In this document: positions 10,861 through 44,346 of the stretch, one piece after another
Position numbering within the stretch: the first letter of the stretch is position 1
Layout: every line of letters starts with the position of its first letter
NCBI GenBank assembly: GCA_964507585.1
Contig: CAZDRS010000001.1
Span: 1-44,346 of the forward strand
DNA length: 44,346 bases
Source: an uncultured Dechloromonas sp.
GTDB taxonomy: Bacteria; Pseudomonadota; Gammaproteobacteria; Burkholderiales; Rhodocyclaceae
Reading direction: 5' to 3'
Made by a program: the position numbers and the translations under genes
The notes under the pieces: model-generated
Seen by the model: the letters and a program-made list of their open reading frames with translations, nothing else
The model's database searches: none
Told to the model about the DNA's origin: nothing

Positions 10861-10943
10861 GAATCTGTCTCCTGTAGATTGTTTTGAAGGTTTCTCTGTC
10901 AAGGTGACGTAACGGCTTTCCTGAAAGCCCCGCCACCCCCCAC

Positions 10944-11027
10944 CGTCATTCCCGCGCAAGCGGGAATCCAGGGCAGCGGGCACGGCCCTTGGTGCATCTC
11001 TGGATTCCCGCTTTCGCGGGAATGACG
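10944..11027. repeat. dRS3/REP-like doublet, copy 3
   Basis: GTCATTCCCGCGCAAGCGGGAATCCAG...CTGGATTCCCGCTTTCGCGGGAATGAC, between the two hpaD genes. Confidence 0.9.
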
Positions 11028-11060
11028 AAGGGAAGCCTGGGGCATCTTTCTCAAGCTCTT

Positions 11061-12070: not shown

Positions 12071-13525
12071 TCAAACGCCCCAGCGCGGAATATGGTGGCT
12101 GCCGTACGACACGGCGATGTTCTTGGCTTCGCAGAACACCTCGTAGCTGTAGTGGTTGCCTTCGCGGCCGGTGCCGGAAGCCTTGCTGCCGCCGAAGGGT
12201 TGGCGCAGGTCGCGGACGTTCTGGCTGTTGACGAAGGTCATGCCCGACTCGATGGCCTTGGCCAGGCGGATGGCTCGGCCGGTGTTGTTGGTCCACAGGT
12301 AGGACGACAGGCCGTAGATGGTGTCGTTGGCGATGGCGATGGCTTCCTCTTCGGTCTTGAAGCGGATGATGCACGGCACCGGGCCGAAGATTTCTTCCTG
12401 GGCGATGCGCATCTTGTTGTCGACATTGGCGAAGACGGTCGGCTGCACCCAGAAGCCGTTTTTGAATTTGGCCGGAATTTCCGGTTGACCGCCGCCAAAG
12501 ACGACTTCGGCGCCTTCCTGCTTGCCGAGTTCGATGTAGTAATTGACCTTGTCCTGATGGCCCTTGGAGATCATCGGGCCGATGATGGTGCTCGGGTCCA
12601 TCGGGTCGCCGACCTTGATCTTGGCGGCACGGGCGGCGAAATCGGCGACGAACTTGTCGTAGATGCCGGCCTGCACGATGATCCGCGAGCCGGCAGTGCA
12701 GCGCTCGCCGTTGTTCGAGAAGATCATGAAGATGGCGGCGTCGAGGGCGCGTTCGTAGTCGGCGTCGTCGAAGATGATGAACGGCGACTTGCCGCCCAGT
12801 TCCATCGAGAATTTCTTCAGGCCCGCCGACTTGACGATGCGGTTGCCGGTCGCCGTCGAGCCGGTGAAGGAGATGGAGCGGACATCCGGATGCGAGACGA
12901 GCGGCTCGCCGGCCTTGTCGCCAAAGCCCTGCACGACGTTGAAGACGCCTGGCGGAATGCCGGCTTCGAGGGCCAGTTCGCCGAGGCGGTTGGCGGTCAG
13001 CGGCGACAGCTCGGACATCTTCATCACGGCCGTGTTGCCGAAGGCCAGGCAGGGCGCGGTCTTCCAGGTGGCGGTCATGAACGGCACGTTCCACGGCGAG
13101 ATCAGCGCGCAGACGCCGACCGGCTGCCACAGCGTGTAGTTCAGGTGGCCGGTGTCGGAATCGTAGGTTTCGCCGTGCATGTGCTGGATCAGCTCGGCGA
13201 AGTAGTTGAAGTTGTCGGAGGCGCGCGGCACCAGCACCTTCTTGGTCTGGTAGGTGACCTGGCCGGTATCGGCGGTCTCCATGTCGGCGATCGGCTCGAC
13301 GTTGGCGGCGATCAGCTCGCCCAAGCGGCGCACCAGGCGGGCGCGTTCCTTGACTGGCGTCGCCGCCCAGCCCGGGAAGGCAGCCTTGGCGGCGGCGACG
13401 GCGGCGTTCACCTCCTCCGCACCGCCGCTGGCGACTTCGGCGATCACTTCGCCGGTGGCCGGGTTGATGGTCTGGAAGGTTTCCCTGCTGTCGACCTTCT
13501 GGCCGTTGATGATGTGCTTGATCAT
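12071..13525 (-). CDS. hpaE: 5-carboxymethyl-2-hydroxymuconate semialdehyde dehydrogenase
   Basis: SPWNVPFMTATWK, KKFSMELGGKSP, NGERCTAGSR, NSQNVRDLRQPFGG and HHIPRWG. Confidence 0.95.
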   Translation of the reverse strand: MIKHIINGQKVDSRETFQTINPATGEVIAEVASGGAEEVNAAVAAAKAAFPGWAATPVKERARLVRRLGELIAANVEPIADMETADTGQVTYQTKKVLVPRASDNFNYFAELIQHMHGETYDSDTGHLNYTLWQPVGVCALISPWNVPFMTATWKTAPCLAFGNTAVMKMSELSPLTANRLGELALEAGIPPGVFNVVQGFGDKAGEPLVSHPDVRSISFTGSTATGNRIVKSAGLKKFSMELGGKSPFIIFDDADYERALDAAIFMIFSNNGERCTAGSRIIVQAGIYDKFVADFAARAAKIKVGDPMDPSTIIGPMISKGHQDKVNYYIELGKQEGAEVVFGGGQPEIPAKFKNGFWVQPTVFANVDNKMRIAQEEIFGPVPCIIRFKTEEEAIAIANDTIYGLSSYLWTNNTGRAIRLAKAIESGMTFVNSQNVRDLRQPFGGSKASGTGREGNHYSYEVFCEAKNIAVSYGSHHIPRWGV

Positions 13526-13580
13526 GCTGTCCTCGCTTTTAGTCTTTGGTGGGCGAAACTAAGAAAGTGCTGAATGGTTC

Positions 13581-13647
13581 GTCATCCCCGCGGAGGCGGG
13601 GATCCAGTTGCTTGCCTTCGCTGGATTCCCGCCTCCGCGGGAATGAC
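13581..13647. repeat. dRS3/REP-like doublet, copy 4
   Basis: GTCATCCCCGCGGAGGCGGGGATCCAG...CTGGATTCCCGCCTCCGCGGGAATGAC. Confidence 0.9.
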
Positions 13648-13671
13648 AATTCCGAATGGATCAGCGCCTCC

Positions 13672-14433
13672 TTAATTGGCGAAGTAAGTCTGGTCGTCGA
13701 CGATGGTGTTGACCAGGCAACACACGCCTTCGACCTCGGTTTCGACGACATCGCCCGGCTTCACGTCAGCCAGGCCTTCCGGCGTACCGGTCAGGATCAC
13801 GTCGCCCGGGTTCAGGGTCATAAAGGACGACAGGTATTCGATCAGGGTCGGGATGTCGAAGATCATGTCGGCCGTGGTGCCTTCCTGCGTCGTCTTGCCG
13901 TTGACCCGCGTTGTCAGCTTCAGCGCCATCGGGTTCGGCACGTCGGCGGCATCGACCAGCCAGGGGCCGAGCGGCGTGCAGGCGTCGCGGTTCTTGACGC
14001 GCAGGTTGGGGCGGTAATAGTTCTCGAGGTAGTCGCGGATGGCGTAGTCGTTGGCCACCGTGTAGCCGGCGACGATGTCCATGGCGTCGGCCTTCTTGAC
14101 GTTCTTGCCGGTCTTGCCGATGACGACGGCCAGCTCGCACTCGTAGTGCATGTAGGTGGCGTCAGCCGGACGGCGCGTATCGGCCTTGTGACCGGTGATG
14201 GCGTTCGGCCCCTTGAGGAAGACGAGCGGCACTTCCGGCGCCTTGAAGGCCAGTTCCTTGGCGTGGTCGGCGTAGTTCAGGCCGAGCGCGAAGACGGTGC
14301 CGACCTCGACCGGCGGCAGCCACTGGAAATCGCCTTCGTTCACGCGGCGGCCATCGGCCAGCTGGACGCGACCGTCGGCGGCTTGCGTCACCTGATGGAC
14401 GGCGCCGTTGTAACTGATACGACCGTGCTTCAT
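13672..14433 (-). CDS. hpaG: HpaG C-terminal-type subunit (FAH-family decarboxylase/isomerase)
   Basis: FALGLNYADH, MHYECEL, NDYAIRDYLENYYRPNLRVK and LTGTPEG. Its ATG overlaps the upstream TGA (ATGA). Confidence 0.92.
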   Translation of the reverse strand: MKHGRISYNGAVHQVTQAADGRVQLADGRRVNEGDFQWLPPVEVGTVFALGLNYADHAKELAFKAPEVPLVFLKGPNAITGHKADTRRPADATYMHYECELAVVIGKTGKNVKKADAMDIVAGYTVANDYAIRDYLENYYRPNLRVKNRDACTPLGPWLVDAADVPNPMALKLTTRVNGKTTQEGTTADMIFDIPTLIEYLSSFMTLNPGDVILTGTPEGLADVKPGDVVETEVEGVCCLVNTIVDDQTYFAN

Positions 14434-15074
14434 GCGGCGACTCCTTGGGCGATGGTGAAAGTCAGGCTGCCGAGGCCTTCGGCGCTGATGCGGACGGAAC
14501 TGCCGGCCTTGGCCTGCGGCGCCATGTAGCGCACGCCGACGAGCAGCACATCGCCCTGGCTGAGCGTCATCCACTCGGTGACGTCGGCGAGCAGCCTGGC
14601 CGGGGAACGGATCAGGTCGTTCAGCGAACGGGTGTCGACTACCTGGCCGTCGATTTCCGTCGTCAGCGCCAGCCTGGACAGATCGGCCAGCGGCTTGACC
14701 GACGAAATCGGCAGCGCACCGTCGAAGCACTTCTCGCGGATGGCCGGACGGTAATAGCTGGTGTGCGGCAGGCTCAGGTCGGCGGCCAGCACGACGCCGG
14801 CGACCGATTCCAGCGCATTGTCGGCAGCCAGGCGGCCGGCGGCGCGGCCCATGACCAGGCCGATGGTGGCGGCGACTTCGACGCTGTCCGCACCGGCCGG
14901 CAGGCTGACGACCGAGCCGCAACCGACGCGGGTGTTGGCCGGCTTGAGATAGAGCACCGGGGCCTTCGGCGCGCCCTTGTACGGCGCCTCCTCCAGCGAA
15001 CCGATTTTCTGGACGGAGACGGTGTCATTGAGGATGACGCCGTACACCGTGCCGCACACTTGCTGTTTGATCAT
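14430..15074 (-). CDS. hpaG: HpaG N-terminal-type subunit (FAH family)
   Basis: GTVYGVILN, PYKGAPKAPVLYLKPANT and YYRPAIREKCFDG. Confidence 0.88.
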   Translation of the reverse strand: MIKQQVCGTVYGVILNDTVSVQKIGSLEEAPYKGAPKAPVLYLKPANTRVGCGSVVSLPAGADSVEVAATIGLVMGRAAGRLAADNALESVAGVVLAADLSLPHTSYYRPAIREKCFDGALPISSVKPLADLSRLALTTEIDGQVVDTRSLNDLIRSPARLLADVTEWMTLSQGDVLLVGVRYMAPQAKAGSSVRISAEGLGSLTFTIAQGVAA

Positions 15075-15089: not shown

Positions 15090-16418
15090 TCAACCGAGGT
15101 AATGCACCAGGCCGAGACACAGGACAGGGAAGAAAACGAGGGCGACGATGCGGATGAAGTCCGAGGCCAGGAAAGGCATCACACCCCAGGCGGTATCCTT
15201 CATCGGCACATCCTTGGCGATCTTGTTGATGACGTACAGGTTCATGCCGACCGGCGGATGAACCAGGCCGATTTCGACGACCATCAGGGCCAGGATGCCG
15301 AACCAGATCGACTTGTCTTCGACGGCCATGCCGAAGAAATCCAAGCCCATGACCATCGGATAGAAAATGGGAATGGTCAAGAGGATCATGGCCAGCGAAT
15401 CCATCACGCAGCCGAGCAGGATGTAGATGACCAGGATGGAGAACAGCACGACCAGCGCCGGCAGGCCGCTGTTCTGCACCCACAGGGCCAGCTCGGTCGG
15501 CATTTGCGACAGGGCCAGGCTGGAGTTCAGCAGGTCGGCGCCGATCAGCACCATGAAGATCATGCCCGTGGCGTGGGCCGTGCCATAGACGCTCTGCAGG
15601 AAGTCCTTGGTGCGCATGCCGCCGGACACTGCGGCGATGATGCCGCAGGCCGCCGCGCCGATCGAAGCGGCTTCGGTCGGGTTGGCCCAGCCGTCATAGA
15701 TGCCAACGATGACCACCATGAACACGAGCAGCACCGGGATGATGTTGATCTGCGCCTTGATCATGTCGCCGAACGGCACCTTGGCGCCGGCCGGACCGGC
15801 CTTCGGGTCGCGGCGAACCTGGATGGCGATGACGATCAGGTAGCCCAGCGCGGCGATGATGCCGGGAACGACGGCGGCGACGAACAGCTTGCCGATCGAT
15901 TCCTGGGTCAGCACGGCGTAGATGACCAGCGGCACGGACGGCGGGATCAGGATGCCCAGCGTGCCGGACGCGGCCAGCGTGGCGGTGGACAGCTTGCCGG
16001 AATAGCCGTTGGCCTTGAGTTCCGGCAGCGCGACCTGCCCCATCGTCGCGGCGGTGGCCAGCGACGAGCCGCAGATGGCGCCGAACGCCGCGCAGGCCGC
16101 CGTTGCGGCCATCGCCAGGCCGCCGCGCCAGTGGCCGATCAGCGAGCCGGCTGCCTTGAACAGCGCCTTGGACAGGCCGCCATGCGTGGCGAACTGCCCC
16201 ATCAGGATGAACAGCGGAATGACCGCCAGGTCGTAGTTGGAAACCCGGGCGTAGACCAGGTTGTTCAGGGTGTACAGCAGGCCGGACGTCTCGCCGGCAT
16301 TCATGACCAGGTAGATGCCGGCGCCGGTGATGAACATGGCCATCGTGATATGCACGCGAACGGCCAGCATCGCCAGCAGGCAGCCGAAACCGATCAAGCC
16401 TATGGAGGTACCGCTCAT
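15090..16418 (-). CDS. dctM: TRAP transporter large permease
   Basis: IPLFILMG, GAICGSSLATAATM, GTLGILIPPS and PPVGMNLYV. Confidence 0.93.
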   Translation of the reverse strand: MSGTSIGLIGFGCLLAMLAVRVHITMAMFITGAGIYLVMNAGETSGLLYTLNNLVYARVSNYDLAVIPLFILMGQFATHGGLSKALFKAAGSLIGHWRGGLAMAATAACAAFGAICGSSLATAATMGQVALPELKANGYSGKLSTATLAASGTLGILIPPSVPLVIYAVLTQESIGKLFVAAVVPGIIAALGYLIVIAIQVRRDPKAGPAGAKVPFGDMIKAQINIIPVLLVFMVVIVGIYDGWANPTEAASIGAAACGIIAAVSGGMRTKDFLQSVYGTAHATGMIFMVLIGADLLNSSLALSQMPTELALWVQNSGLPALVVLFSILVIYILLGCVMDSLAMILLTIPIFYPMVMGLDFFGMAVEDKSIWFGILALMVVEIGLVHPPVGMNLYVINKIAKDVPMKDTAWGVMPFLASDFIRIVALVFFPVLCLGLVHYLG

Positions 16419-16958
16419 TTACTTGCTCCCCGGAATATTCTTGGTCGGATGAAAATGGGCATAGGCCCGGTACATCGCGCAAATCATCATCAGGAACAGC
16501 CCGGGCACGAGCAGGGCCGTCGGAATCCACAGCGGCAGCGAGACCAGCGTCGTCACTTCCTGCGATTCATGGGTGGCGATCGCCGACAGGATGGTGCGCC
16601 ACACCAGCAGCGCAGACACCACGGCGAACAGGACTTCGGCGATGCCGTCGATCGGGCGCTTCAGCGAATCACGCATGTTCTCGGTGAAGAAATCCACCTT
16701 GATGTGCTCGCCGAGCAGGGTGCAGTACGGCAGGAAGGCCGTCGCCGCGACGGCCGTGCCGGCCTGCATCAGTTCGATGTCGCCGTTCACCGAGCCGAAG
16801 CCCAGCTTGCGGCCGACGATAGATACCAGCGACATGACGATCAGGGCGATGAACAGCACGCCGCCGGAAATCGCCATCGTCTTGCCGGCCATGATCAGGT
16901 AGTGCTCGACCTTGTCGTGCTCCACCAGATCATGGGGCATACCCATCGGATCTTGCAT
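16419..16958 (-). CDS. dctQ: TRAP transporter small permease
   Basis: Four hydrophobic segments and HIKVDFF; lies between dctP and dctM. Confidence 0.88.
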   Translation of the reverse strand: MQDPMGMPHDLVEHDKVEHYLIMAGKTMAISGGVLFIALIVMSLVSIVGRKLGFGSVNGDIELMQAGTAVAATAFLPYCTLLGEHIKVDFFTENMRDSLKRPIDGIAEVLFAVVSALLVWRTILSAIATHESQEVTTLVSLPLWIPTALLVPGLFLMMICAMYRAYAHFHPTKNIPGSK

Positions 16959-16980
16959 GCTGTTCTCCTCGATCCTTGTT

Positions 16981-18000
16981 TTACTTGTTGGTGCCGGTCA
17001 GTTCGCGGGCGGCGGCAATCAGCTTCTTGCCGTCCAGGCCCTTCTCGCCGACCTGCTTGGCCCATTCTTCCTCGACGCTGGCGGTGGCCTGCTTCATGGC
17101 CGTCACCTGGGTGGCGCTCAGCGTGGTGATCTTGTTGCCCTGGGCGGCGATGCGCTTCTTGGTATCGGCAGCGACCTCGTCGAACATGGCGCCGAACTTG
17201 CCGACCATCACTTCGCCGGTGGTCTTGTCGACGATGGCCTTCAGGTCGGCCGGCAAGCCGTCGTACTTCTGCTTGTTCATCAGCACGGTCAGCACGGTGG
17301 CGGTCGGATAGGCCACGCCGTTATCCGGCTGCAGGTGGAACTTGGTGACTTCGGACAGCTTGGTCGGATAGACCAGCTCCCAGGCACCGAGCGAACCATC
17401 GACGACGCCCTTGGAAATGGCCTCGGTGACCTGCGCCGGCGGCATGGCGACGGGCTGGCCGCCCAGCGCCGCCAGGGTCTTGGCGCCGACACGGGTCGAG
17501 GTGCGCAGCTTGAGGCCGGAAAAACCGGTCAGGCCGGCGATCTGCTTGCCGGCGGTGTGCACGGCCTGGCCGCCATCGGTGTGGAAAGCCAGCACCTTGT
17601 AGGCGGCGAATTCCTGCAGGGCGTTCTGTTGGTAATACTTCCACAGCGCCTTGGAGCTGGAGGTCGCGTCCTTGACCATGAACGGCAGTTCGAAGGCCTC
17701 GATGGCCGGGAAGCGGCCGGCCGAGTAGCCGGGGCCGGTCCACACCACGTCGGCGACGCCGTTCTTGACCTGATCGGCCAACTGGGCCGGCGTGCCGCCC
17801 AGCTGCATGGCCGGGTAGAACTGGCACTTGATGCGGCCGTTCGACAGCTTGCCCATCTCGTCGCACCACGGCTGCAGCACCTTCTGCTGGGTCGGCGCGG
17901 CCGACGGCAGGAAATGGGCGATCTTGAAGGTAACTTCTTGAGCCAGAGCCGGAACGGAAGCAGCCATGGCGCCAAGCAAGACAAAGTGACGATAGTTCAT
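16981..18000 (-). CDS. dctP: TRAP substrate-binding protein
   Basis: Signal peptide, YPAMQLGG, GRFP...ELPF and GLKLR. Start MNYRH with a GAGGAG RBS. Confidence 0.92.
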   Translation of the reverse strand: MNYRHFVLLGAMAASVPALAQEVTFKIAHFLPSAAPTQQKVLQPWCDEMGKLSNGRIKCQFYPAMQLGGTPAQLADQVKNGVADVVWTGPGYSAGRFPAIEAFELPFMVKDATSSSKALWKYYQQNALQEFAAYKVLAFHTDGGQAVHTAGKQIAGLTGFSGLKLRTSTRVGAKTLAALGGQPVAMPPAQVTEAISKGVVDGSLGAWELVYPTKLSEVTKFHLQPDNGVAYPTATVLTVLMNKQKYDGLPADLKAIVDKTTGEVMVGKFGAMFDEVAADTKKRIAAQGNKITTLSATQVTAMKQATASVEEEWAKQVGEKGLDGKKLIAAARELTGTNK

Positions 18001-18038
18001 TCGACATCTCCTCGAAGAGTGTGGATTCAATCCACATT

Positions 18039-18088
18039 TATTAACATATTAGTGATCAAATTAAATCACTACTATATTAGTGAGTCAA
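18039..18088 (-). promoter_or_regulatory. Sigma70 promoter of the dctP-hpa operon with two HpaR-like palindromes
   Basis: Minus strand reads TTGACT-17 bp-TTTAAT. Boxes are TATTAACATATTAGTG (18039-18054) and CACTACTATATTAGTG (18067-18082). Confidence 0.75.
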
Positions 18089-18719: not shown

Positions 18720-20150
18720 TCAAGCCTTCATGATTTTGAGGGTCTGCATCGACGTGTATTCGGCCAGGCCATGCTGGCCGAACTCGACGCCGATGCCGGA
18801 TTGCTTGACGCCGCCGAACGGCGCATCGGGCTGGATGGCGCCATGCTCGTTGACCCAGGCCGTGCCGCACTCCAGGCGCATGGCCAGCGCGGCGGCCTTG
18901 GCCGGATCGCTCGACCACACCGAGCCGCCCAGGCCATTCGGGCTGTTGTTGGCGCGGGCAATGACCTCGTCGATGTCGCTGTAGCGGATCACCGGCAGGA
19001 TGGGGCCGAACGGCTCCTCATCGACCAGGCGCACGCCGTCGGCGATGTCGGCGACGATGGTCGGCTCGTAGAAGTAGCCGGGGCCGGCCTTGCGCTTGCC
19101 GCCGCACAGGAAGCGAGCGCCGTGGGCGCGGGCATCCTCGGCCAGTTCCTCGACCTTGGCCAGTTGCATGGCGTTCTGGATCGGGCCGAGCTGGGTGTCC
19201 GGATTCATGCCGTCGCCGACCACGGCATTGCGGGCCAGGTTGACCAGTTCCGCGCACAGCTCGTCGTAGATGCTGTCATGGACGTACAGGCGCTTCAGAC
19301 AGGCGCAGGTCTGGCCGTTGTTGTGGAAAGTAACGCCGAACAGCTTGGGCGCGATGGCCTTGACGTCGACATCGGGCAGCACGATACCGGCGTCGTTGCC
19401 GCCCAGCTCCAGCGTCAGGCGCTTCAGGTTGCCCGAGGCATTGGCCATGATGCGCCGGCCGGTCGCCGTCGAGCCGGTGAACACGATCTTGGCGATGCCC
19501 GGGTGGCTGGTCATGGCCGGGCCGACATCGGAACCGGCGGCGCCGGTCACGAAGTTGAGCACGCCCGGCGGCAGGATGGCATTGGCCAGTTCGGCAAAGC
19601 GGGCGGTGGCCACCGGCGTCATTTCCGACGGCTTGAGCACCACGGTATTACCGGCGCGCAAGGCCGGAATAACGTGCCAGATGGCAATCATCAGCGGCCA
19701 GTTCCACGGCGTGATTGAGCCGACCACGCCGAGCGGCTTGCGATGCACCTCGACACGCGCCTCGGCGTTGTCCTGAATGACTTCGACCGGCAATTCCAGA
19801 TCGGCGGTGACGTGCGTCCAGGCGATCGAACCGCCGACTTCCATGCCCGCCCCGACACCGTTCAGGCCGCCCTGCGGCTTGCCGGTTTCCAGCGTGACCA
19901 GGCGCATCAGTTCCGGCATGTTGGCTTCGAGCGCCGCCCCCAGCGCGTGCATCAGCGCTTTGCGCTCGGCATCCGGCTTGCGGCTCCAGGCCGAGAAAGC
20001 GGCCTGTGCAGCCTTGACCGCCGCATCGACGTGGCTGGCATTGCCAGCCTGAGCCTGGGCAAACGCCTCGCCGGTAGCCGGGTTGATGACGGGGAAAGTG
20101 GTGGCCGCCTGGACGGCCTGGCCGTCGATCAGCATGGAAAGAGTTTGCAT
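18720..20150 (-). CDS. Aldehyde dehydrogenase, probably for (hydroxy)phenylacetaldehyde
   Basis: ITPWNWP, FTGST, LELGGND, NNGQTC and EEPFGP. Substrate is inferred from context only. Confidence 0.88.
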   Translation of the reverse strand: MQTLSMLIDGQAVQAATTFPVINPATGEAFAQAQAGNASHVDAAVKAAQAAFSAWSRKPDAERKALMHALGAALEANMPELMRLVTLETGKPQGGLNGVGAGMEVGGSIAWTHVTADLELPVEVIQDNAEARVEVHRKPLGVVGSITPWNWPLMIAIWHVIPALRAGNTVVLKPSEMTPVATARFAELANAILPPGVLNFVTGAAGSDVGPAMTSHPGIAKIVFTGSTATGRRIMANASGNLKRLTLELGGNDAGIVLPDVDVKAIAPKLFGVTFHNNGQTCACLKRLYVHDSIYDELCAELVNLARNAVVGDGMNPDTQLGPIQNAMQLAKVEELAEDARAHGARFLCGGKRKAGPGYFYEPTIVADIADGVRLVDEEPFGPILPVIRYSDIDEVIARANNSPNGLGGSVWSSDPAKAAALAMRLECGTAWVNEHGAIQPDAPFGGVKQSGIGVEFGQHGLAEYTSMQTLKIMKA

Positions 20151-27423: not shown

Positions 27424-27792
27424 TCACTTCAGGGTTTGCAGGAAACAGATCAGGTTTTGCCGCTCGACGGCCGACTTGAGGCCCTGGAAAGGCATGGCGG
27501 TACCGGGTACGGCGGTATTCGGCGCAGTCAGGAAGGCGTCGAGCCGGGCTTCGTCCCAGGCGCCCTGCTTCGCGGCCAGGGCTTCGGAATAGCTGAAGCC
27601 TTCGGCCTTGCCCGGCTCCCGGCCATAGACCCCATGCAGATTGGGGCCGACCGTATGCGCCGCGCCAGCCGCCGCGACATGGCAGATGCCGCACTTGTTG
27701 GCGAAGGTCTTCTGCCCCTTGTCGAGGTTGCACTCGGCAGCGCCGGCGGCGGTTGCCAGCAGGGCGATGAGCGGGAAAATCAGCTTCTTCAT
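27424..27792 (-). CDS. Class I (c2-like) monoheme cytochrome c
   Basis: Signal peptide, CGICH, GPNLHG and PGTAMPF (Met ligand). ATGA overlap with the amine oxidoreductase stop. Confidence 0.92.
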   Translation of the reverse strand: MKKLIFPLIALLATAAGAAECNLDKGQKTFANKCGICHVAAAGAAHTVGPNLHGVYGREPGKAEGFSYSEALAAKQGAWDEARLDAFLTAPNTAVPGTAMPFQGLKSAVERQNLICFLQTLK

Positions 27793-29234
27793 GCCCGGCC
27801 CTTCAGGTACGCCCGCACGTCGCGTGCTGCCGTGACGCCCGACTCCAGCGCGCCATCGACGAAACCCCGCCAGCCTTCGGCCTGGTCTGAGCCGGCCATG
27901 AACACCCCGCTTTCGGCCCGGCGCAATTCCGGCAGGCCGCCGGTCAGCTGTCCGGGGCGATACCAGCACCAGGTGCCGTGCGAATACGGATCGACATCCC
28001 ACTGGTAGCCGGTCACGCCCAGCACTTCGGCCTTCGGCAACAGGGTGCGCAGCGCTGCTTGCACCGCCTCTTCGTCGGTGATGTCGAGCAATCCCGGCGG
28101 CCCGAAGCAGACCAGCAAGGTGCCGTCGTCGCGCTGCTGCTCGGTCCACGTCAGCGTGATCGGGCTGGGGTAAGGCGCCATGCCCATCCAGTTGCCGACC
28201 TTCTGCTTGATGTGGATGTAGCACTTGGTGCCGCGCCCGGTGTGGCCGGCCTCGGCCATCTTCTGCTTGCCGGCGCTCAGTTCCGGCGTCATCCGAATGC
28301 TCTTCAGCACATTCAGCGGCACGGCCATGACGACGACACGGGCACGATAGGTAGCGCCCTTGGCGGTGGTCACCTGATGCTCTTCTTCACGCCGGGTCAC
28401 CGCGGCCACCGGCTCGGACAGCGCCACGTCGCAACCGCAATCGGCCAGCATCCGGGCTGCCAGTTCGCCCATGCCTTCGCGTATCTTGTAGCGGCCCAGC
28501 TTGTCGAACATGCGGCCCATGTCGAAATCGCCGAGCGACCACCAGCGCAGCATGTCGGCAAACCCGGCCAGCCCCAGTTCGTTATGGCAGTTGATGCTGA
28601 GCTGCGGACTGAGCAGATCGCGCGTTTCGCGATTCAGGTGCAGCGCATCGAGCCGTTCCTGCAGGGACAGCGCATCCCAGCGCGCCAGGGCTTCCTTGCG
28701 GAACAACGGGTCGTGCGCCAGCGGCAGCACGTCGCGCCCGCCCTGCCCGTCCACGTTGCAGAAGCGCTCCATCGCCCTGGCGATCTTTTCCCACACCGGC
28801 CCGGCCTTGCCGTGGTGCAGCTTGCCGCCGCTGATCCACGACACCGTCTCGGCCGCCGCCCCCGGGCTTTCCTCGATACCCAGGCCGTAGCGCGTGATTT
28901 CGTTCCACACGTAGGGCTGGCTCCAGTGGATCCAGGTGCCGCCCAGCTCGATCTTCTTGCCCTGGTAGGCCGACGTGAATGTCCGCCCGCCGATGCGGTT
29001 GCGCGCTTCGAGCAACAAGACCGACAGACCGCTTTTCGCCAGATCGCGGCTCGCCGCCAAACCGGCAAACCCGGCGCCGATGACGATCACGTCATAAGCA
29101 TCGCGCCCCGGTTTTCGAACCACCGGCTCGCTCGCCGCACCGGCCACCCCGGGCACGCCGGCCAGACCGACGCTGCCGGCCAAGCCGCCGAGAAAGCGGC
29201 GCCTGCCTTGGCCTTTGGCTTCCATTCCGTCCAT
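27789..29234 (-). CDS. Tat-exported flavin amine oxidoreductase (MAO/NicA2/Pnao family)
   Basis: GRRRFLGG Tat motif, VIGAGFAG, LEARNRIGGR, ELGGTW and GFVDGALESG. Start MDGME with a GAGGAG RBS. Confidence 0.92.
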   Translation of the reverse strand: MDGMEAKGQGRRRFLGGLAGSVGLAGVPGVAGAASEPVVRKPGRDAYDVIVIGAGFAGLAASRDLAKSGLSVLLLEARNRIGGRTFTSAYQGKKIELGGTWIHWSQPYVWNEITRYGLGIEESPGAAAETVSWISGGKLHHGKAGPVWEKIARAMERFCNVDGQGGRDVLPLAHDPLFRKEALARWDALSLQERLDALHLNRETRDLLSPQLSINCHNELGLAGFADMLRWWSLGDFDMGRMFDKLGRYKIREGMGELAARMLADCGCDVALSEPVAAVTRREEEHQVTTAKGATYRARVVVMAVPLNVLKSIRMTPELSAGKQKMAEAGHTGRGTKCYIHIKQKVGNWMGMAPYPSPITLTWTEQQRDDGTLLVCFGPPGLLDITDEEAVQAALRTLLPKAEVLGVTGYQWDVDPYSHGTWCWYRPGQLTGGLPELRRAESGVFMAGSDQAEGWRGFVDGALESGVTAARDVRAYLKGRA

Positions 29235-29284
29235 ACCACTCTCCTCTGCCAAATCGAATTTCACCAATATGAAATCGATTGAAT

Positions 29285-36989: not shown

Positions 36990-37436
36990 TTATTGCGATG
37001 CGGCGCGCCAGGCGCGCAGTTCCTTGGCGGTCGGCTTCTTGGCGCGGAAGGCGGCCAGGGCGTCGGCCTCGATCGGCTGGTGCCCGGCCGGCAGGTCGGC
37101 GCCGTTGAAGGTGGTCAGCACGTGGTTGAGCACGGCGGCCAGTTCGGCATCCGACAACTGCTGCCAGGCCGGCATGATGCCCTCGTAGACGACGCCCTTC
37201 GATTCCAGCTTGCCGGCCAGGCCGGCGATGACGATGCCGGCCAGGTACTGCCGGCCTTCCGGCACCGCCATCCGCTTGCCCAACGTACCGGCCAGCGGCG
37301 GCGCCAGGCCGAGCGCGCCAGCGCCGTCCGGTTGGTGGCAGGCGGCGCAGTTGGCGTCGTAGACCGCCTTGCCGTCCTGGGCGCCGGCGACACCGGCGGC
37401 CAGCGCCAGGATCAGGCTGCAAATCAAACGCTTCAC
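36990..37436 (-). CDS. Monoheme cytochrome c (His/Met)
   Basis: Signal peptide, CAACHQ, PPLAG and YEGIMPAW. GTG start overlaps the aauA stop. Confidence 0.88.
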   Translation of the reverse strand: MKRLICSLILALAAGVAGAQDGKAVYDANCAACHQPDGAGALGLAPPLAGTLGKRMAVPEGRQYLAGIVIAGLAGKLESKGVVYEGIMPAWQQLSDAELAAVLNHVLTTFNGADLPAGHQPIEADALAAFRAKKPTAKELRAWRAASQ

Positions 37437-37981
37437 GACTGCCCCTCTTCCAGGCCGACGATGACCGACACCGTGCAGTGGTAGTGGCTGCTCTGGTTGG
37501 CCATGCACCAGTTGATGTCGTTGTGCACGCCCATCCGGTAGCCCGGCCGTTCGCGGGTGTTGGTGTTGCAGAAGCAGCGGCCGCAGGCGGTCTTGCCGCA
37601 GCAGTCGTTGTAGCTGACCAGATAGTCGCGCCCGTCGGCCGGATTGCGGCAGGTGCCGACCCAGGACACGGCGGACGGCGTGCTGCCCGGCGGGCAGGTC
37701 GTCATGGTGCCGCCGCAGCAGGAGCACAGGAAGCCATCGACACTGCAATAGCGCCAGTAATCGCAATCGGTCTCGGTCGGTTCGCGTTTTTTCGGCGCGC
37801 TGCCGTGGCCGCCGGCGGCGTGGGCATGGTTGGTGCGGTCGAAGGGCAGTACCGGCAGGGCGAAGGCACCGGCCACCAGCAGCTTGCTGACGCCGACCAG
37901 GAAGCCGCGCCGCCCGGTGTTGCTGGCCACCGCCCGCGTGCGGCGCTCGGTGAAGCGGTCGAGTAATTTGAGGAAGTCCAT
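37433..37981 (-). CDS. aauA: TTQ amine dehydrogenase small subunit, aromatic amine dehydrogenase type (MauA family)
   Basis: Tat motif GRRGFL, CDYWRYC and both TTQ tryptophans (SWVG, NDINWC). FLCSCCGG, DCCGKTACGRC and RERPGY match the Alcaligenes AADH pattern as recalled, rather than MADH. Confidence 0.92.
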   Translation of the reverse strand: MDFLKLLDRFTERRTRAVASNTGRRGFLVGVSKLLVAGAFALPVLPFDRTNHAHAAGGHGSAPKKREPTETDCDYWRYCSVDGFLCSCCGGTMTTCPPGSTPSAVSWVGTCRNPADGRDYLVSYNDCCGKTACGRCFCNTNTRERPGYRMGVHNDINWCMANQSSHYHCTVSVIVGLEEGQS

Positions 37982-37984
37982 GGC

Positions 37985-38605
37985 TCAGACCTTTTCCGGA
38001 TGGGCTTCGGCCGCCAGCAGCTGACGGTCGATATGCTCCTGCACCGACGCGATGCCGCTTTCGTAGGCCGTCATCAGGCTTTCGACCTGCTCGCGGGAAT
38101 TGACCAGGCCCTTGGCGCGGACGAAGCCCTTGGCATCGAGCAGCACGCAGTAGGGTAGCTTGGAGATCTTGTAGGCCATGCCCAGCGGCTGCGACAGCAC
38201 GTAGGGGAAGTCGGCCAGCTGGTGCTTTTCGCGGAAAGTGGCATGCTCCGGGCGGTCGCCGTCGGAGGCCAGCACCACGTTGAGCCAACGGTTTTCACGT
38301 TGCTGGACGGAACGGATGATGGGCAGCAGCTTCTTGCATACCGGGCAGGTCGGCGACACGAAGAAGAGCAGCGTGCTCTTGGCGGTGGCCGTGCCGATGG
38401 TCAGGCCCTGGCCTTCCCAGGTGGTGACCTCAACCGGCGGCGCCAGTTCGCCGACCTTGGGGCCGTGATCCATCATCAGCGCCCCCATCGGCGCGACACG
38501 TTCGTAGAGGATGCCGATCTGGCGGGACAGCGCCAGGACACAGATGCCGAGGGCGACGACGACGACCCACAGGGCGATTACAGACAGGGCGAGCGGTTCC
38601 ATCAT
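37985..38605 (-). CDS. aauD: MauD/AauD thioredoxin-like maturation protein
   Basis: RQIGILYERVAPMGAL, SPTCPVCKKLLP and KGLVNSREQVESL. Confidence 0.92.
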   Translation of the reverse strand: MMEPLALSVIALWVVVVALGICVLALSRQIGILYERVAPMGALMMDHGPKVGELAPPVEVTTWEGQGLTIGTATAKSTLLFFVSPTCPVCKKLLPIIRSVQQRENRWLNVVLASDGDRPEHATFREKHQLADFPYVLSQPLGMAYKISKLPYCVLLDAKGFVRAKGLVNSREQVESLMTAYESGIASVQEHIDRQLLAAEAHPEKV

Positions 38606-39147
38606 GGTTGCAACTCCTTCAAAAGCGGTTGATTGGCGAGCAGTTGGTTGGCGCTGGCATAGACGACCAGCAAGGCCAGGATGGCGCCCGCCACACTGAA
38701 ATAATCGAGTGCGCCGAGGCTGCGCGGCAGCTCGTCGGCAGCGGCCAGCAGCAGCGCAGCACAGAGGAACAGGTTGCGCCCGACCAGGCCCCACGAGATG
38801 CGCTGGCCGCCGGTGCCGCAACCGCATTCGATGCGCCCCATGCCGCGCAGCAGGTTGATCGCCACGCCGCCGGTGGCCACGGCCATGACGCCCAGGCCAA
38901 GCAGCACGCCGAGCGGCCGCGTGGCATCGAGGATCAGGGCCAGGCCGGCGAGCAGTTCGACCACCGGGAAGACCTTGGCGAACAGCACGGCGGCAGCGCC
39001 GTTGAGCAGCCCGTAGTTGTCCACTGCGTAGCGGAACAGTTCCAGGTCGCGCAGTTTGCCCAGCGCGCCGGTGATCAGGATGATGCCCATGGCCGCCGCA
39101 GCGGCATGGACGACCACCGGATCGAACAGGAAAGTCGTCGCGCCCAT
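38602..39147 (-). CDS. aauE: MauE/AauE membrane maturation protein
   Basis: GKLRD...F...NY and INLLRG...IECGC...RN motifs; lies between aauB and aauD. Confidence 0.9.
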   Translation of the reverse strand: MGATTFLFDPVVVHAAAAAMGIILITGALGKLRDLELFRYAVDNYGLLNGAAAVLFAKVFPVVELLAGLALILDATRPLGVLLGLGVMAVATGGVAINLLRGMGRIECGCGTGGQRISWGLVGRNLFLCAALLLAAADELPRSLGALDYFSVAGAILALLVVYASANQLLANQPLLKELQP

Positions 39148-39148
39148 G

Positions 39149-40333
39149 TCAGCGCACCTCCATGAACAGCGAGGTTTCGCCGACGCCGGCCATCGTCCTG
39201 GCGACCGGGTAGCCCTTCTGGATCTTGCGGGCCACGATCTCGCCCTTTTCAACATTCAGCGCGTAGAGCAAGGGCTCGCTGCCCTGGCTGGCGACCAGCG
39301 AAATCGCCTCGTTGGACGGAATGCGCGCAACGCGCTTCTGGCTGGCGACATCGAAGGCCCAGATTTCCTTGGACGGATTCTTGTGCGATCCCTCGGCGCC
39401 GTTGTCGTGCATGTTCACGTAGAAGGTGCCGCTGGCCCGGTGCATGGCCGTCACCTGCATGCCGCCCGGCCGCCAGTTGGCCTTGCGGTCGCGGGCGTCG
39501 AGCAGTGACCACGGGGCGGCGAAGGCCGGTTTGTCGCCGGCCAGGGTCACCTTGTAGACGTTGCCGTAGTAGGAAACGAAGTAGCGGTCGCCGCCGAGCA
39601 TTTCCGGATGGACGTAGATCGGATCCTTATCGGGATCGAAGAAGCGCTGGCTACGCTCGCGGCCGGCCGGCTGGCCGGCGTCGTCGAGGCTCACGGTGAG
39701 CAGCGTGCCGTCGCCGCAGATGGTCGAGAAGCGGTTGCCCTTTTCGTTATCTTCACCCTTCTCCCAGGCCTGGATCGACCAGCAGCCGGGGGTCGGGATT
39801 TCGGCGACGAACTTTTTTGCCTGCAGGTCGACCACGCTGACCGACGTCGCCGGCGTGGCGTTCTGCACGTACAGGAAACGGCCGTCGGCGCTCGGCACCA
39901 GCATGCTGCGGTACGAGGCGGCCTGCGCCCGCTTGGCCGGAATATCGATCTCGGCCTTCAGTTCCAGCGTTTCGGCATCGTGGATTTCGACCACGTCGCT
40001 GCGCTGGCCGCGATACAGACGGGGATAGTAGGTGGTCGCCACGTAGATGGACTTGCCATCCGCCGACACCGTGGTCAGCGCGCCGTAGCCGGCCATGACG
40101 ACGCCGAGGTAGCGCGCCGCCTTGCCGTCCACCACGTGCACGCGGCCGTCGACCATGTGGTTGAAGACGAAATCGGTGACGTACAGGCGGTTGCCATCGG
40201 GCGGCGCCGCCCGTTCGACGCGGATTTCCTCCTCCGCCAAGGGAGGCGGCCGATCCTTGCCGGCCTGCGCCGTGGCCGCCGCCAGGCAGAGCGGCAACGC
40301 AATCAGCGCCAGCCGCGATGAAATTTTTTGCAT
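39149..40333 (-). CDS. aauB: TTQ amine dehydrogenase large subunit (MauB family beta-propeller)
   Basis: Signal peptide, YVATTYY, QNATPATSVSVVD, PGCW, ICGDG, WRPGG and GSHKNP...EIW. Confidence 0.92.
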   Translation of the reverse strand: MQKISSRLALIALPLCLAAATAQAGKDRPPPLAEEEIRVERAAPPDGNRLYVTDFVFNHMVDGRVHVVDGKAARYLGVVMAGYGALTTVSADGKSIYVATTYYPRLYRGQRSDVVEIHDAETLELKAEIDIPAKRAQAASYRSMLVPSADGRFLYVQNATPATSVSVVDLQAKKFVAEIPTPGCWSIQAWEKGEDNEKGNRFSTICGDGTLLTVSLDDAGQPAGRERSQRFFDPDKDPIYVHPEMLGGDRYFVSYYGNVYKVTLAGDKPAFAAPWSLLDARDRKANWRPGGMQVTAMHRASGTFYVNMHDNGAEGSHKNPSKEIWAFDVASQKRVARIPSNEAISLVASQGSEPLLYALNVEKGEIVARKIQKGYPVARTMAGVGETSLFMEVR

Positions 40334-40595: not shown

Positions 40596-41594
40596 TTACG
40601 AAACGTGCACGCAAGGCGTCTGCGACGGCAGTTCGCCGAACAGCTTGCGGTAGTCCTGCGCCAGCTGCGACAGGTGCCAGAAGCCCCAGCGCGCCGCCAC
40701 GTCGCCAATCGACTCGCACTGCGGCTCGCGTACCTTCAGGGCGCGGCGGAAAGCGTTGAGGCGGATGGCCTTCAGGTAGTGCTGCGGCGAAATGCCGAAC
40801 ACTTCCTGCGTGGCATTCTGCAGGGTGCGGCGGGTGACGCCGATTTCGTCGCAGATGTCAGAAATGCTCAGGGCCGACTCCGGCGAAGCATCGAGCAGCG
40901 TGCGGAAGCGACGCACGATGCGCTCACGGTTGGGGCAGACCGCATGAACCTCCGGCCCGCGCGAAATGCGCAGGACGTCGATCAGGATGCTGTAGAACTC
41001 CTCTTCCAATTGACGCAGGTTGCTCGGAATCATCAGGTGATCGGCTGCCTGTTGTCCGCATTCGTAGACCCGGCACAGAAAATCGGTCAGTTGGCGGGTA
41101 TTGGAGGGGCCGATGGTCTTGCAGGAACGATGCAGCTCGGCTTCCAGTTCGCGATAGTCGAAGCCCGGATCGTCGAGATTGACCGCCAGGTCGCGCGGAG
41201 AAAAGACGGCGGCGATCAAATCAAAGCACTCCGGCGTGCGAATCTCGAATTCCGTTCCCGGCTCGAGAATGGCGGCAGTATGGGTGGCCATCAATTCACC
41301 GCAATGGAAACCGCTATCGCCCGTCGTCATCAGGGTGCCGATGGCAAACACGCCCTTCGGCGTACAACCCTTCTGCAGCAGAACCCGATTGCTCGTTTCG
41401 CGGATCAGCGTAAAGGACGGGAAACCCATTTCCTGCAGCGAACCGCTGAAACGGCCTCCGGACAACTGGTCGTAGCGCTGATCCCAATTCTGGTAGATCA
41501 ATGCACCGGCCTGCGCGTCCACATCGGCATTTTCCAGGGATCGGGAAACGATTCGGCCATAGCCTGCGGCGGTTTCGAAAAGCGGGTTCATCAC
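40596..41594 (-). CDS. AraC-family regulator, EutR-like
   Basis: N-terminal WDQRYDQLSGGRFSG and C-terminal GVTRRTLQ...SPQHYLKAIRLN...WGFWHLSQLAQDYRKLFGELPS. Confidence 0.92.
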   Translation of the reverse strand: MMNPLFETAAGYGRIVSRSLENADVDAQAGALIYQNWDQRYDQLSGGRFSGSLQEMGFPSFTLIRETSNRVLLQKGCTPKGVFAIGTLMTTGDSGFHCGELMATHTAAILEPGTEFEIRTPECFDLIAAVFSPRDLAVNLDDPGFDYRELEAELHRSCKTIGPSNTRQLTDFLCRVYECGQQAADHLMIPSNLRQLEEEFYSILIDVLRISRGPEVHAVCPNRERIVRRFRTLLDASPESALSISDICDEIGVTRRTLQNATQEVFGISPQHYLKAIRLNAFRRALKVREPQCESIGDVAARWGFWHLSQLAQDYRKLFGELPSQTPCVHVS

Positions 41595-41629: not shown

Positions 41630-41664
41630 CGCTAATATATTAGCGTAAAATCTAAAATGGTCAA
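41630..41664 (-). promoter_or_regulatory. Promoter of the AraC gene with a perfect HpaR-like palindrome
   Basis: CGCTAATATATTAGCG (41630-41645) overlaps the -10 of minus-strand TTGACC-16 bp-TAATAT. Confidence 0.7.
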
Positions 41665-42001: not shown

Positions 42002-43057
42002 TTACACCCGCTTGAACAGCGGGCTGCGCACCTGCTGGGCGTCGGCCGCCGAGAAGAATTTCTCGGTGTAGATGTCGCGCTCGAACAGGCGGCCCTGCAT
42101 CAGGGTCGTGATACAGGCTTCGATCATCACCGGCGGGCCGCACAGGTAGGCCTTGTTGCCGCGGAAATCGTTGTCGAAATGGGCCTTGGCCGCTTCATGG
42201 ACGAAGCCGCGGAAGCCGGTCCAGCCGCTGTCGGCCGGTTCGTCGTTGAGCGCCGGCACGTAGGTGAAGTTCGGATATTTGGCGGCCAGTTCGACGAATT
42301 CCTGGTGGTAATACAGCTCGCCCTGGTTGCGCGCGCCGTAGACCAGCGTGATCGGCAGCGTGGATCCCTGTTCCAGCAGGTCGAGAATCATCGAGCGCGG
42401 GCTGGACAGGCCTGAACCGCCGGCCATGAACAGCGACGGCACATCGGCCGACTTGTGCACGAAGAAGCGGCCGTAGGGGCCGGAAACCGTCACCGCGTCG
42501 CCGACCTTGAGTTCGTTGTGGATCCAAGTCGTGCCGACGCCGCCGGGAACGATGCGGATGTTCAGCTCGATCTCGTCGCCGGTCGATGGCGAATTGGCCA
42601 GCGAAAAGGCGCGGTGGCCCATGTCGTTGGGCAGGTTGAAATTGACGTACTGGCCGGCCTGAAAGTCGAGCGCCTCGTCGAGCTTGAGCCAGATGCCCTT
42701 GATGGTGGGCGTCAGGTTCTCGATGCGGCTGACCGCGCCCGGAAAGTCCTTGACCGGGATGTCGCGGGCGTCCTCGTCGATTTCCATCTCGACTTCGATG
42801 ACGGTGTCGGCTTCGAGCGTCGCGCAGCAGGCCAGCGCCTTGCCTTCCTCGCGCTCGTAATCCATCAGCGCGAAGCTGGAGGCGTTCTGGTGATCGACCT
42901 CGCCGTCGGTGATGCACACCTTGCAGGTGGCGCAATAGCCCTGCCCGCAGGCATGCGGCAGGTAGATGCCGGCACGCAGTGCGGCGTCGAGGATGGTCTG
43001 GCCGTCTTCGACTTCGATGCTGCGGCCGAGCGGCTCGATGGTCAGTTCGTAGCTCAT
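42002..43057 (-). CDS. dmpP: Phenol hydroxylase reductase (P5; 2Fe-2S/FAD/NADH)
   Basis: CGQGYCATC...ACC ferredoxin domain, RAFSLAN, GGSGLS, YLCGPP and C-terminal RSPLFKRV. Confidence 0.94.
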   Translation of the reverse strand: MSYELTIEPLGRSIEVEDGQTILDAALRAGIYLPHACGQGYCATCKVCITDGEVDHQNASSFALMDYEREEGKALACCATLEADTVIEVEMEIDEDARDIPVKDFPGAVSRIENLTPTIKGIWLKLDEALDFQAGQYVNFNLPNDMGHRAFSLANSPSTGDEIELNIRIVPGGVGTTWIHNELKVGDAVTVSGPYGRFFVHKSADVPSLFMAGGSGLSSPRSMILDLLEQGSTLPITLVYGARNQGELYYHQEFVELAAKYPNFTYVPALNDEPADSGWTGFRGFVHEAAKAHFDNDFRGNKAYLCGPPVMIEACITTLMQGRLFERDIYTEKFFSAADAQQVRSPLFKRV

Positions 43058-43063
43058 TTTTTT

Positions 43064-43224
43064 TAGGATCCAGGAGTTAGGATCGAGGATCGAGTAAAAC
43101 CGTTGGGGCTGAACCCGTCATTCCCGCGCAGGCGGGAATCCAGTTCCTTGCCTTTCCTGGACTCCCGCTTTCGCGGGAGTGACGAATTCAAACTCGATCC
43201 TGAATCCTAATATCTAACAGCTAA
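43064..43224. repeat. Inverted heptamer arrays (AGGATCG-like) enclosing dRS3/REP-like doublet copy 8 (43116-43184)
   Basis: Left: AGGATCC-AGGAGTT-AGGATCG-AGGATCG-AG. Right, reverse-complemented: AGCTGTT-AGATATT-AGGATTC-AGGATCG-AG. Confidence 0.8.
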
Positions 43225-43584
43225 TCAATACCCCGTACCGGCGATGCCATCCAGCCCCGGCGTCCGGAAACGGATCAGATCCTTGTGGCCGATGCCGTTT
43301 TCCTTGAGGCTCTTGGCACGATCCGGCGTGAAGGGCGTGTTGCCGTTCTGCCAGATGGCCTTGTCCCAGTCGATGTGCTGCCAGTCCGGGTGGTAGCTGA
43401 AGCAGGCGGCCATTTCTTCGAGCACAGCCGAGAACGGCGTATCCGGCGTCATGGCCAGCACGAAGGGGCGCGAGAACATGCGGTGGCGCTCCCAGTTCAC
43501 GTACAGCAGCTGGCGGCCCTTGTAGTTCTCGACCGCGTCGCGCGACTTGAACTCGTACGGGGCAAGGGTTTTCAACATCGTCAT
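43225..43584 (-). CDS. dmpO: Phenol hydroxylase gamma subunit (P4)
   Basis: HPDW..IDW, FTPD..KSL.ENGIGHKDLIRFRTPGLDG. Confidence 0.9.
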   Translation of the reverse strand: MTMLKTLAPYEFKSRDAVENYKGRQLLYVNWERHRMFSRPFVLAMTPDTPFSAVLEEMAACFSYHPDWQHIDWDKAIWQNGNTPFTPDRAKSLKENGIGHKDLIRFRTPGLDGIAGTGY

Positions 43585-43596
43585 GGCTGTCTCCTT

Positions 43597-44346
43597 TTAG
43601 TTTTTCGTGGCCTGCTCGCGCCAGGCTGCGAAGTTCTTCTGGTCCTCGGAGCCGTTGAAGTCGCCGAGGGCGCGCTTGTCGAGCTTCCAGTAGTCGAGCA
43701 TGTGGCGGCCCGGCTCGAAGCCCGGCGCATTGACATCGACGCCATCCGGCTCGCAGTTGCCCTGCAGCACCTGGTGCGAGGAGATGAAGGTCTGGCTGTA
43801 CTTTTCCGGCTCGTTGTCGAAGATTTCCTTGCAGTGGTCGGAACAGGTATGGAACTTCTCGCCCTGGTAGATCGACTCGCGGAAGCACATTTCCATCGGG
43901 TCGCCCGGCTCGTTGAACTTCATGGTGCTGACGCAGACCTGGCAGTTCATCGGCGCCGTCTTGTTGTCGAAGCGGTTGCCGGCCTTTTCCTGGGCGTCGA
44001 AGAATTCCAGCACCGGACGGTAGTACTTGTCGAAGGTGTTGGGGTACTTCTCGGACAGCCAGTCCATTTCGTCCGGGGTCGGAATCCAGGTGTGGAACGG
44101 CGTGGCCTGCGGCTTCATGTAGAAACCGATCCACGACTGGTGCGAGACGTGTTCCTTTTCCTCGATGGTCTGGCTGAAGCACTTCGGGATGGTGATGCCG
44201 TAGCGGGCGAGATCCTTGAACAGCGCGCCGCCGTTTTCCTCGACGTACATTTCCCAGGCTTCCTTGAAGCTCATAATCCGTTTCGGCAGCATGTAGTCCA
44301 TCATCATGCCGACCGAGGCCAGCTTGCGGGTGCCGCGCCAGGTCCA
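43597..44346 (-). CDS. dmpN: Phenol hydroxylase diiron alpha subunit (P3), 5'-truncated by the window edge
   Basis: Open from 44346 (WTWRG...). MMMDYMLP, WLSEKYPNTFDKYYRP, CQVC, YHS-type CSDHCK.IF..EPEKY and QGNC. Confidence 0.93.
   Translation of the reverse strand, partial: WTWRGTRKLASVGMMMDYMLPKRIMSFKEAWEMYVEENGGALFKDLARYGITIPKCFSQTIEEKEHVSHQSWIGFYMKPQATPFHTWIPTPDEMDWLSEKYPNTFDKYYRPVLEFFDAQEKAGNRFDNKTAPMNCQVCVSTMKFNEPGDPMEMCFRESIYQGEKFHTCSDHCKEIFDNEPEKYSQTFISSHQVLQGNCEPDGVDVNAPGFEPGRHMLDYWKLDKRALGDFNGSEDQKNFAAWREQATKN

Follow-up and report, generated by a model that had tools for sequence, protein, structure and literature searches.

A diiron monooxygenase operon behind hpaA as a candidate replacement for HpaBC in Dechloromonas and its relatives

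The stretch of DNA analysed here (the window) is a whole 44,346-nucleotide contig, C1, of an uncultured Dechloromonas sp. whose 3.45 Mb assembly is spread over 735 contigs and is 81% complete. At its right end we confirmed the 3' part of an operon for a phenol hydroxylase-like diiron monooxygenase, all on the minus strand: the 3' half of a dmpN-like alpha-subunit gene (43597..44346, residues 266-514 of the full-length form), which is open at the contig end and over this part 90-99% identical to full-length relatives, followed by genes for a dmpO-like gamma subunit (43225..43584; PF04663, E 8e-22) and a dmpP-like 2Fe-2S/FAD/NAD reductase (42002..43057; PF00111, PF00970 and PF00175). A terminator-like hairpin, running from 41973 to 41951 on the same strand directly after the dmpP stop, closes the operon (one of 6 such hairpins in the scan vs 4.2 expected by chance), and the next gene encodes an AraC-family regulator; as originally noted, neither a ferredoxin nor a catechol dioxygenase gene follows. 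The window further carries a full homoprotocatechuate pathway on the minus strand: hpaG1, hpaG2 and hpaE (12071..15074; the HpaE and HpaG C-terminal models score over cut-off, the HpaG N-terminal model just under), tandem homoprotocatechuate 2,3-dioxygenase genes hpaD1 (11061-11909) and hpaD2 (9964-10860; the pair spans 9964..11909), 54% identical and both over the TIGR02298 cut-off, and hpaF, hpaH, hpaI and a succinate-semialdehyde dehydrogenase gene (6332..9936; domain and family profile matches). The two hpaD-type genes are the only ring-cleavage type in the window, as had been claimed, and neither a gene of the HpaB family, window included, nor a catechol dioxygenase gene beyond the window was found in the 81%-complete assembly.

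The first half of the operon, expected outside the window, was located by a family search of the assembly on contig C226 (L003), where hpaR (minus strand), hpaA, dmpK, dmpL, dmpM and the start of dmpN, encoding its first 66 residues, follow one another, with hpaA and hpaR directly upstream of dmpK. Both regulators score above their NCBIfam cut-offs (HpaA, 312 bits vs 274.65; HpaR, 136.7 bits vs 121.2), and all six dmp subunits have Pfam matches, in the order accessory, beta, coupling, alpha, gamma and reductase. Since dmpN is split over C226 and C1, with about 600 bases (about 200 codons) unassembled between them, the operon might be broken in this genome, or the two contigs might not belong together. 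However, 9 of 36 same-genus genomes encode a 90-99% identical subunit, and all nine hold hpaR, hpaA and dmpKLMNOP in one unbroken piece (dmpP being cut by the contig end in one); moreover, contigs from a sequencing run that contains DNA of the window, and that may be the source sample, cover the gap when placed on a relative's locus, at a depth of 23-27, equal to that of both flanks. We consider a broken or wrongly joined operon scarcely credible. The start of C226 (1-55) resembles a tRNA 3' end, and in relatives tRNA-Pro or tRNA-Thr immediately precedes hpaR, which suggests a cluster moving between tRNA sites.

To place the enzyme, we scanned for homologs with the full-length alpha subunit of a relative. 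Among the matches listed, 27 of 80 genome loci encode a subunit at least 82% identical to the query (hereafter the clade) and the other 53 one at most 72% identical (ordinary). Clade carriers comprise Dechloromonas, Zoogloea, Propionivibrio, Leeia, alphaproteobacterial metagenome-assembled genomes (MAGs) and a Steroidobacteraceae MAG; records 96-100% identical to the relative's subunit include Dechloromonas, and cultured carriers among the named records are Leeia oryzae DSM 17879, Dechloromonas hankyongensis XY25 and Zoogloea dura G-4-1-14. None of 400 other genomes in a class-wide draw contained the clade, which therefore appears rare. Trees of the alpha subunit were built with FastTree and IQ-TREE; in the 51-row IQ-TREE phylogeny, whose tips include no characterised enzyme, 15 clade rows form a single group (support 100/100) on a long stem inside the ordinary betaproteobacterial phenol hydroxylases, and the beta-subunit and reductase trees likewise split off the clade (support 99, FastTree). 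Nesting among ordinary phenol hydroxylases had been named as a finding that would speak against a replacement of HpaBC; the protein does nest there, but because it belongs to a separate, long-stemmed clade, the nesting does not refute such a replacement. Two proteins without gene context (P0009 and P0012), 74-77% identical and with partly different pocket residues, branch at the base of the clade and are possibly further specialised hydroxylases. Three others (P0008, P0010 and P0011) join an N-terminal half of the clade type to C-terminal motifs of the ordinary type, or partly show the mirror image, and were left out of the tree as apparent mosaics, arisen by recombination or assembly; a MAG dmpN that is frameshifted near its 3' end (L151 10001-11544), possibly through sequencing error, was for that reason excluded from the trees and residue counts.

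The clade tracks with hpa neighbourhoods, as had been anticipated. A gene for HpaA adjoins 24 of the 27 listed clade loci vs none of the 53 ordinary ones; of the remaining three, two end before it, and in Leeia hpaA is found together with the hpa genes at another place on the same contig. Distant hpaA genes were checked, and 9 of 11 pass the cut-off while two miss it by less than 3 bits. Conversely, the companions of a Dmp-type catabolic operon are confined to the ordinary loci: DmpR lies beside 0/27 clade vs 35/53 ordinary loci (two weak sigma-54 matches, of less than 45% identity, were not counted as DmpR), catechol 2,3-dioxygenase beside 0/27 vs 46/53, and DmpQ beside 0/27 vs 42/53. A set of 80 metagenome loci, which overlaps the genome set, behaves alike, with hpaA beside 15 of 26 clade loci (14 of the 16 with room upstream) vs 0 of 54 ordinary ones, and with none of its 26 clade loci having DmpR, DmpQ or catechol dioxygenase alongside. 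Several same-genus genomes have one or two ordinary phenol hydroxylase operons, some of them besides the HpaA-linked one (L062 4484-13648 and other loci).

The promoter of the operon points in the same direction. In the E. coli record NZ_CP012376 hpaA directly precedes hpaB, and a 34-base stretch starting 123 bases upstream of that hpaB, which we take to be the HpaA binding site, finds its best match in the Dechloromonas genome just upstream of dmpK (26/34 positions, next best 23; ungapped search of the whole genome, both strands). A shorter core motif precedes dmpK in 25/25 and 16/17 clade loci of two locus sets vs 0/40 and 0/37 ordinary loci, and it stays upstream of dmpK even where hpaA lies elsewhere. 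The core pattern was drawn partly from clade promoters, whereas the match to the E. coli 34-mer is independent of them. Downstream of the core motif, 21/25 and 14/17 clade loci carry an HpaR-like box, so that the box expected upstream of dmpK is indeed present; the patterns at the dmpK promoter read GAAAAGTAC and TAAYATNTTA. The HpaR-like pattern occurs at five places in the genome, four of which lie at dmpK, hpaR/hpaA, the araC gene (41632..41643 of the window; the core of the E. coli operator is TTAACATATTAA) and dctP (18041..18052, a pattern match upstream of the dctP-hpaG operon). For comparison, the portions of PMC7180172 available to us describe HpaA of E. coli as an activator of hpaBC and HpaR as a repressor of the lower pathway, with HpaR sites of the form TTAA-N4-TTAA in Yersinia and E. 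coli. The hydroxylase genes thus stand behind hpaA and a promoter region of the hpaBC type, in company with hpaD; binding of HpaA to this region is predicted from sequence. This gene order, behind the regulator and an hpaBC-like promoter, makes the enzyme a likely candidate for the first step of 4-hydroxyphenylacetate breakdown.

Whole-genome co-occurrence sharpens the picture. Genes for HpaD are found in 35 of 35 clade genomes, namely 32/32 (31 over cut-off and one truncated at the end of its contig) and three further ones. Of 27 same-genus genomes that lack the clade, only one has hpaD, in a cluster that continues past the contig end. No clade genome (0/35) holds an HpaB over the equivalog cut-off or a C2-type hydroxylase over its cut-off, and 17 of the 35, including genomes rated 99-100% complete, show neither family at the thresholds used. 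We also made a check that is not built on the hydroxylase, by seeking HpaA in 251 genomes of the order. It was found in eight, of which one (G131) is a duplicate of a clade genome included in the counts above and was not examined a second time. Each of the others has one solution to the hydroxylation step: the diiron clade and no HpaB in the genome studied here and in G184, G178 and G281, hpaBC without the clade in G171, and C1/C2 without the clade in G189 and G264. In most clade genomes hpaD is present in two copies, the second of which may encode an enzyme that cleaves a different catechol or forms a mixed oligomer.

The same data bear on whether the enzyme could still be a phenol or cresol hydroxylase that has only come to lie next to the hpa regulators, with an unrecognised flavin enzyme elsewhere hydroxylating 4-hydroxyphenylacetate. 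Its nesting among phenol hydroxylases and its 59% identity to the phenol hydroxylase of Pseudomonas sp. OX1 (PHH) over a structural alignment are in keeping with such a scenario, as are other group D flavin monooxygenases in some clade genomes. On the other hand, no intradiol or catechol 2,3-dioxygenase was found in five of five clade genomes tested, the Dechloromonas genome included, which would leave catechol made from phenol without an evident outlet, and relatives that do have a catechol pathway carry a separate operon of the ordinary type, with catechol 2,3-dioxygenase and often DmpR. The promoter motif remains on dmpK when hpaA is elsewhere, the alpha subunit has 40 clade-specific alignment positions, and the PF01494 and top PF08028 matches checked in G017 proved to be ubiquinone hydroxylases, a halogenase/QhpG-like protein and acyl-CoA dehydrogenases. 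We therefore regard a displaced phenol hydroxylase as very improbable.

Residue comparisons are consistent with a conserved catalytic centre and an altered pocket. The alpha subunit matches PHH with an E value of 2e-205, and the predicted model of a relative's subunit (predicted local distance difference test score 75.5) superposes on PHH with a template modelling score of 0.88. Residues E109, E139, H142, E200, E234 and H237, the diiron ligands (pattern Glu, ExxH, Glu, ExxH), are kept together with T204 and N205 in 33/33 aligned clade sequences, which are 58-74% identical to ordinary members. The six-gene order, an alpha-subunit identity of at least 35% with the same fold, and the ligands with their Thr/Asn pair, as read in relatives, place the enzyme in group 2 of the soluble diiron monooxygenases (SDIMOs) and outside the flavin 4-hydroxyphenylacetate hydroxylase families, although it likely works like the latter. 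The 40 clade-specific positions (33 clade vs 183 ordinary sequences) include Thr105, Tyr140, Asp175-Gly176 and Lys273. Three motif differences from typical phenol hydroxylases had been proposed at the outset, and all three hold against the solved PHH (WFWRGFRLL, LPQLCQVCQIP and QAWLPVHQIYQG); the T of 'WRGT', however, also occurs in 24/183 ordinary enzymes, whereas the K of 'RKL' is found in 33/33 clade sequences and 0/183 ordinary ones. Thr105 aligns with the gate residue Ile100 of toluene o-xylene monooxygenase, and changing the gate residue of toluene 4-monooxygenase (T4MO) to Ala, Ser or Gly raised tyrosol hydroxylation 34- to 36-fold, according to the available part of PMC3962191. A placement of PHH Leu272 in the cavity was not found in the readable literature.

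Which compound the enzyme would hydroxylate is suggested by what varies around it. In the window, the AraC-family gene (40596..41594, minus strand; EutR-like match below cut-off), likely a regulator of the amine module, is followed by genes for a tryptophan tryptophylquinone amine dehydrogenase (large subunit, MauE, MauD and small subunit; 37433..40333, minus strand), which likely feeds arylamines in as aldehydes, and further along by those for a flavin amine oxidase (27789..29267, minus strand; PF01593) and an aldehyde dehydrogenase (18720..20150, minus strand; domain and family profile matches), likely converting arylacetaldehyde to the acid. Both amine-oxidizing units are optional in relatives. 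A tripartite ATP-independent periplasmic (TRAP) transporter, dctPQM (15090..18030, minus strand), likely an importer of the acid, comes immediately after dmpP in minimal clusters (G008, G023, L081, L082, L088, L089 and L092), which consist of hpaA-dmpKLMNOP-dctPQM-hpa and lack amine genes; two distant clusters (L101/L103) have a pyrroloquinoline quinone alcohol dehydrogenase gene instead. That the hydroxylase is constant while the feeder modules vary points to the acid as substrate. The original prediction that a diiron enzyme would feed HpaD with a product of 4-hydroxyphenylacetate, tyramine or tyrosol is supported by the gene context, and among the three the acid is much the likeliest because several clusters keep the hydroxylase, TRAP and hpa genes without amine-oxidation genes.

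The enzyme might nonetheless serve the hpa pathway with another true substrate: tyramine, tyrosol, 4-hydroxyphenylacetaldehyde, 3-hydroxyphenylacetate only, a longer phenolic acid, or phenylacetate hydroxylated twice. Amine dehydrogenase genes do follow dmpP in the window and in 8 of the 27 listed clade loci, the two hpaD paralogs hint at a second catechol, and engineered toluene monooxygenases hydroxylate 2-phenylethanol twice (PMC3962191, same portion). Against this stand the minimal clusters, which retain hydroxylase, TRAP and hpa genes with no adjoining amine or alcohol module, and the constancy of the hydroxylase next to upstream modules for either amine or alcohol oxidation. Phenylacetyl-CoA epoxidase does not separate the substrate options, as 19/35 clade genomes show none, in favour of phenylacetate as substrate, and 16/35 have this CoA route for it. 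Tyramine and tyrosol as direct substrates were judged unlikely in view of the clusters that have no such module beside them, and we hold a different true substrate, taken over all these compounds, to be unlikely.

We therefore propose, with a probability of roughly 80%, that the six-gene diiron hydroxylase behind hpaA and the hpaBC-like promoter ortho-hydroxylates 4-hydroxyphenylacetate to homoprotocatechuate in place of HpaBC; 3-hydroxyphenylacetate would probably be converted to the same product. In the proposed mechanism, the TRAP system would import the acid, or amine or alcohol modules, where present, would make it upstream from tyramine or tyrosol; acid-bound HpaA would activate dmpK-P, and HpaR would repress it. 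The reductase would pass electrons from NADH to the diiron site, and the substitutions in the pocket (Thr at the I100/V106 gate, Val-Pro replaced by Asp-Gly, and PHH Leu272 by Lys) would let in the carboxymethyl arm and perhaps form a pair with it. HpaD would then open the ring and HpaEFGHI would complete the pathway. In the simplest history, a phenol hydroxylase operon would have taken the place of hpaBC behind its promoter and then specialised.

Several observations weigh against this proposal. At least three genomes have the operon and hpaA at separate places; HpaB-family genes are found in 6/35 clade genomes (five products share 21-22% identity with E. coli HpaB, the sixth 52%), and distant C2-like flavin monooxygenases, as weak matches, in 16/35. 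The support is contextual throughout, and the clade genomes are kin, so their counts are not independent and are to be read as patterns, not as p-values. In the Dechloromonas genome itself, 81% complete as assembled, the roughly 200 missing dmpN codons include the iron ligands. A pairing of Lys273 with the carboxylate is a guess. Finally, Table S2 of a 2025 SDIMO review (PMC11825192) lists no 'hydroxyphenyl' substrate, so that an anionic substrate would be new for the diiron fold.

More broadly, it seems to us likely that a natural SDIMO subfamily evolved a carboxylate-accepting pocket, took over the HpaA/HpaR regulon and the old hpaBC promoter, and now serves in several proteobacterial families as a third and flavin-free type of hydroxyphenylacetate 3-hydroxylase; double hydroxylation of phenylacetate, or the use of other phenolic acids whose products are cleaved by the second HpaD, may be further activities. 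We found no description of a diiron hydroxyphenylacetate hydroxylase in the literature, with subscription papers largely not covered, and the words 'diiron' and 'multicomponent' are absent from a 2024 review of 4-hydroxyphenylacetate 3-hydroxylases (PMC10816480). If correct, the proposal would make this a clear instance of one gene being replaced by a non-homologous one while its regulatory wiring is retained, and would supply a natural model for how a charged side chain can be accepted by a diiron fold. A gap in the pathway would be closed for those betaproteobacteria of wastewater and groundwater in which hpaD occurs without hpaB, and some of the marker matches to 'phenol hydroxylase' would signal breakdown of tyrosine or tyramine and not of pollutants. 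The enzyme would also be a candidate catalyst for catechols such as hydroxytyrosol.

Other features of these loci deserve mention. A gene for an HpaB-like protein, the one 52% identical to E. coli HpaB, lies in a clade genome beside a glyoxalase-type dioxygenase and an ABC transporter (L190 8134-9696). Within the window, genes for DUF1329, DUF1302, RND and BNR proteins sit inside the cluster (20185-27068), and a comparable block is found next to other operons for aromatic hydroxylases in this genus. The amine dehydrogenase genes are adjoined by one for a 368-residue membrane protein (35327-36433) that has no Pfam match and is 70-89% conserved in relatives. Palindromic repeats resembling repetitive extragenic palindromes occupy eight intergenic sites in the window (6243-43190; e.g. 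43117-43190) and one on C226 (~2260-2290); the dmpO-dmpP and hpaA-dmpK spacers are among these sites.

Among the closest known systems are PHH (PDB 2INN, 2INP and 3U52) and the Dmp-type group 2 enzymes, with which the clade shares the fold, the iron ligands, the Thr/Asn pair and the six-gene order accessory, beta, coupling, alpha, gamma, reductase that the accessible text of PMC11825192 gives for the group. The same source names phenol, cresols, haloaromatics, toluene, tetrahydrofuran, benzene and xylene as phenol monooxygenase substrates. Unlike the Dmp-type systems, the clade is associated with HpaA/HpaR and an hpaBC-like promoter in the place of DmpR, lacks an adjoining DmpQ or catechol dioxygenase, is linked to homoprotocatechuate cleavage, and has the 40 specific residues, several of them at or near the pocket by alignment. 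In genetic layout it resembles the E. coli hpa cluster, which shares hpaA directly upstream of the hydroxylase, the promoter region (26/34), the lower pathway, and HpaA and HpaR proteins 40% and 39% identical. The differences are a TRAP transporter in place of hpaX, the additional HpaR-like box at the dmpK promoter and, above all, the enzyme itself: HpaBC is a two-component flavin enzyme of the acyl-CoA dehydrogenase fold, and 3-hydroxylation of 4-hydroxyphenylacetate is reviewed as the work of such two-component flavin enzymes (available sections of PMC10816480), whereas its place here would be taken by an unrelated enzyme with a predicted diiron fold. The Acinetobacter-type C1/C2 system (PDB 2JBR), flavin-dependent in contrast to the clade, is likewise an unrelated solution to the same step. 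Finally, the engineered T4MO I100A/S/G and toluene o-monooxygenase V106A/S/E variants are also diiron enzymes and, once altered at the gate position that is Thr in the clade, they hydroxylate tyrosol or 2-phenylethanol; in the part of the literature accessible to us, however, they are described as laboratory variants acting on neutral alcohols, with no physiological role or carboxylate substrate reported.

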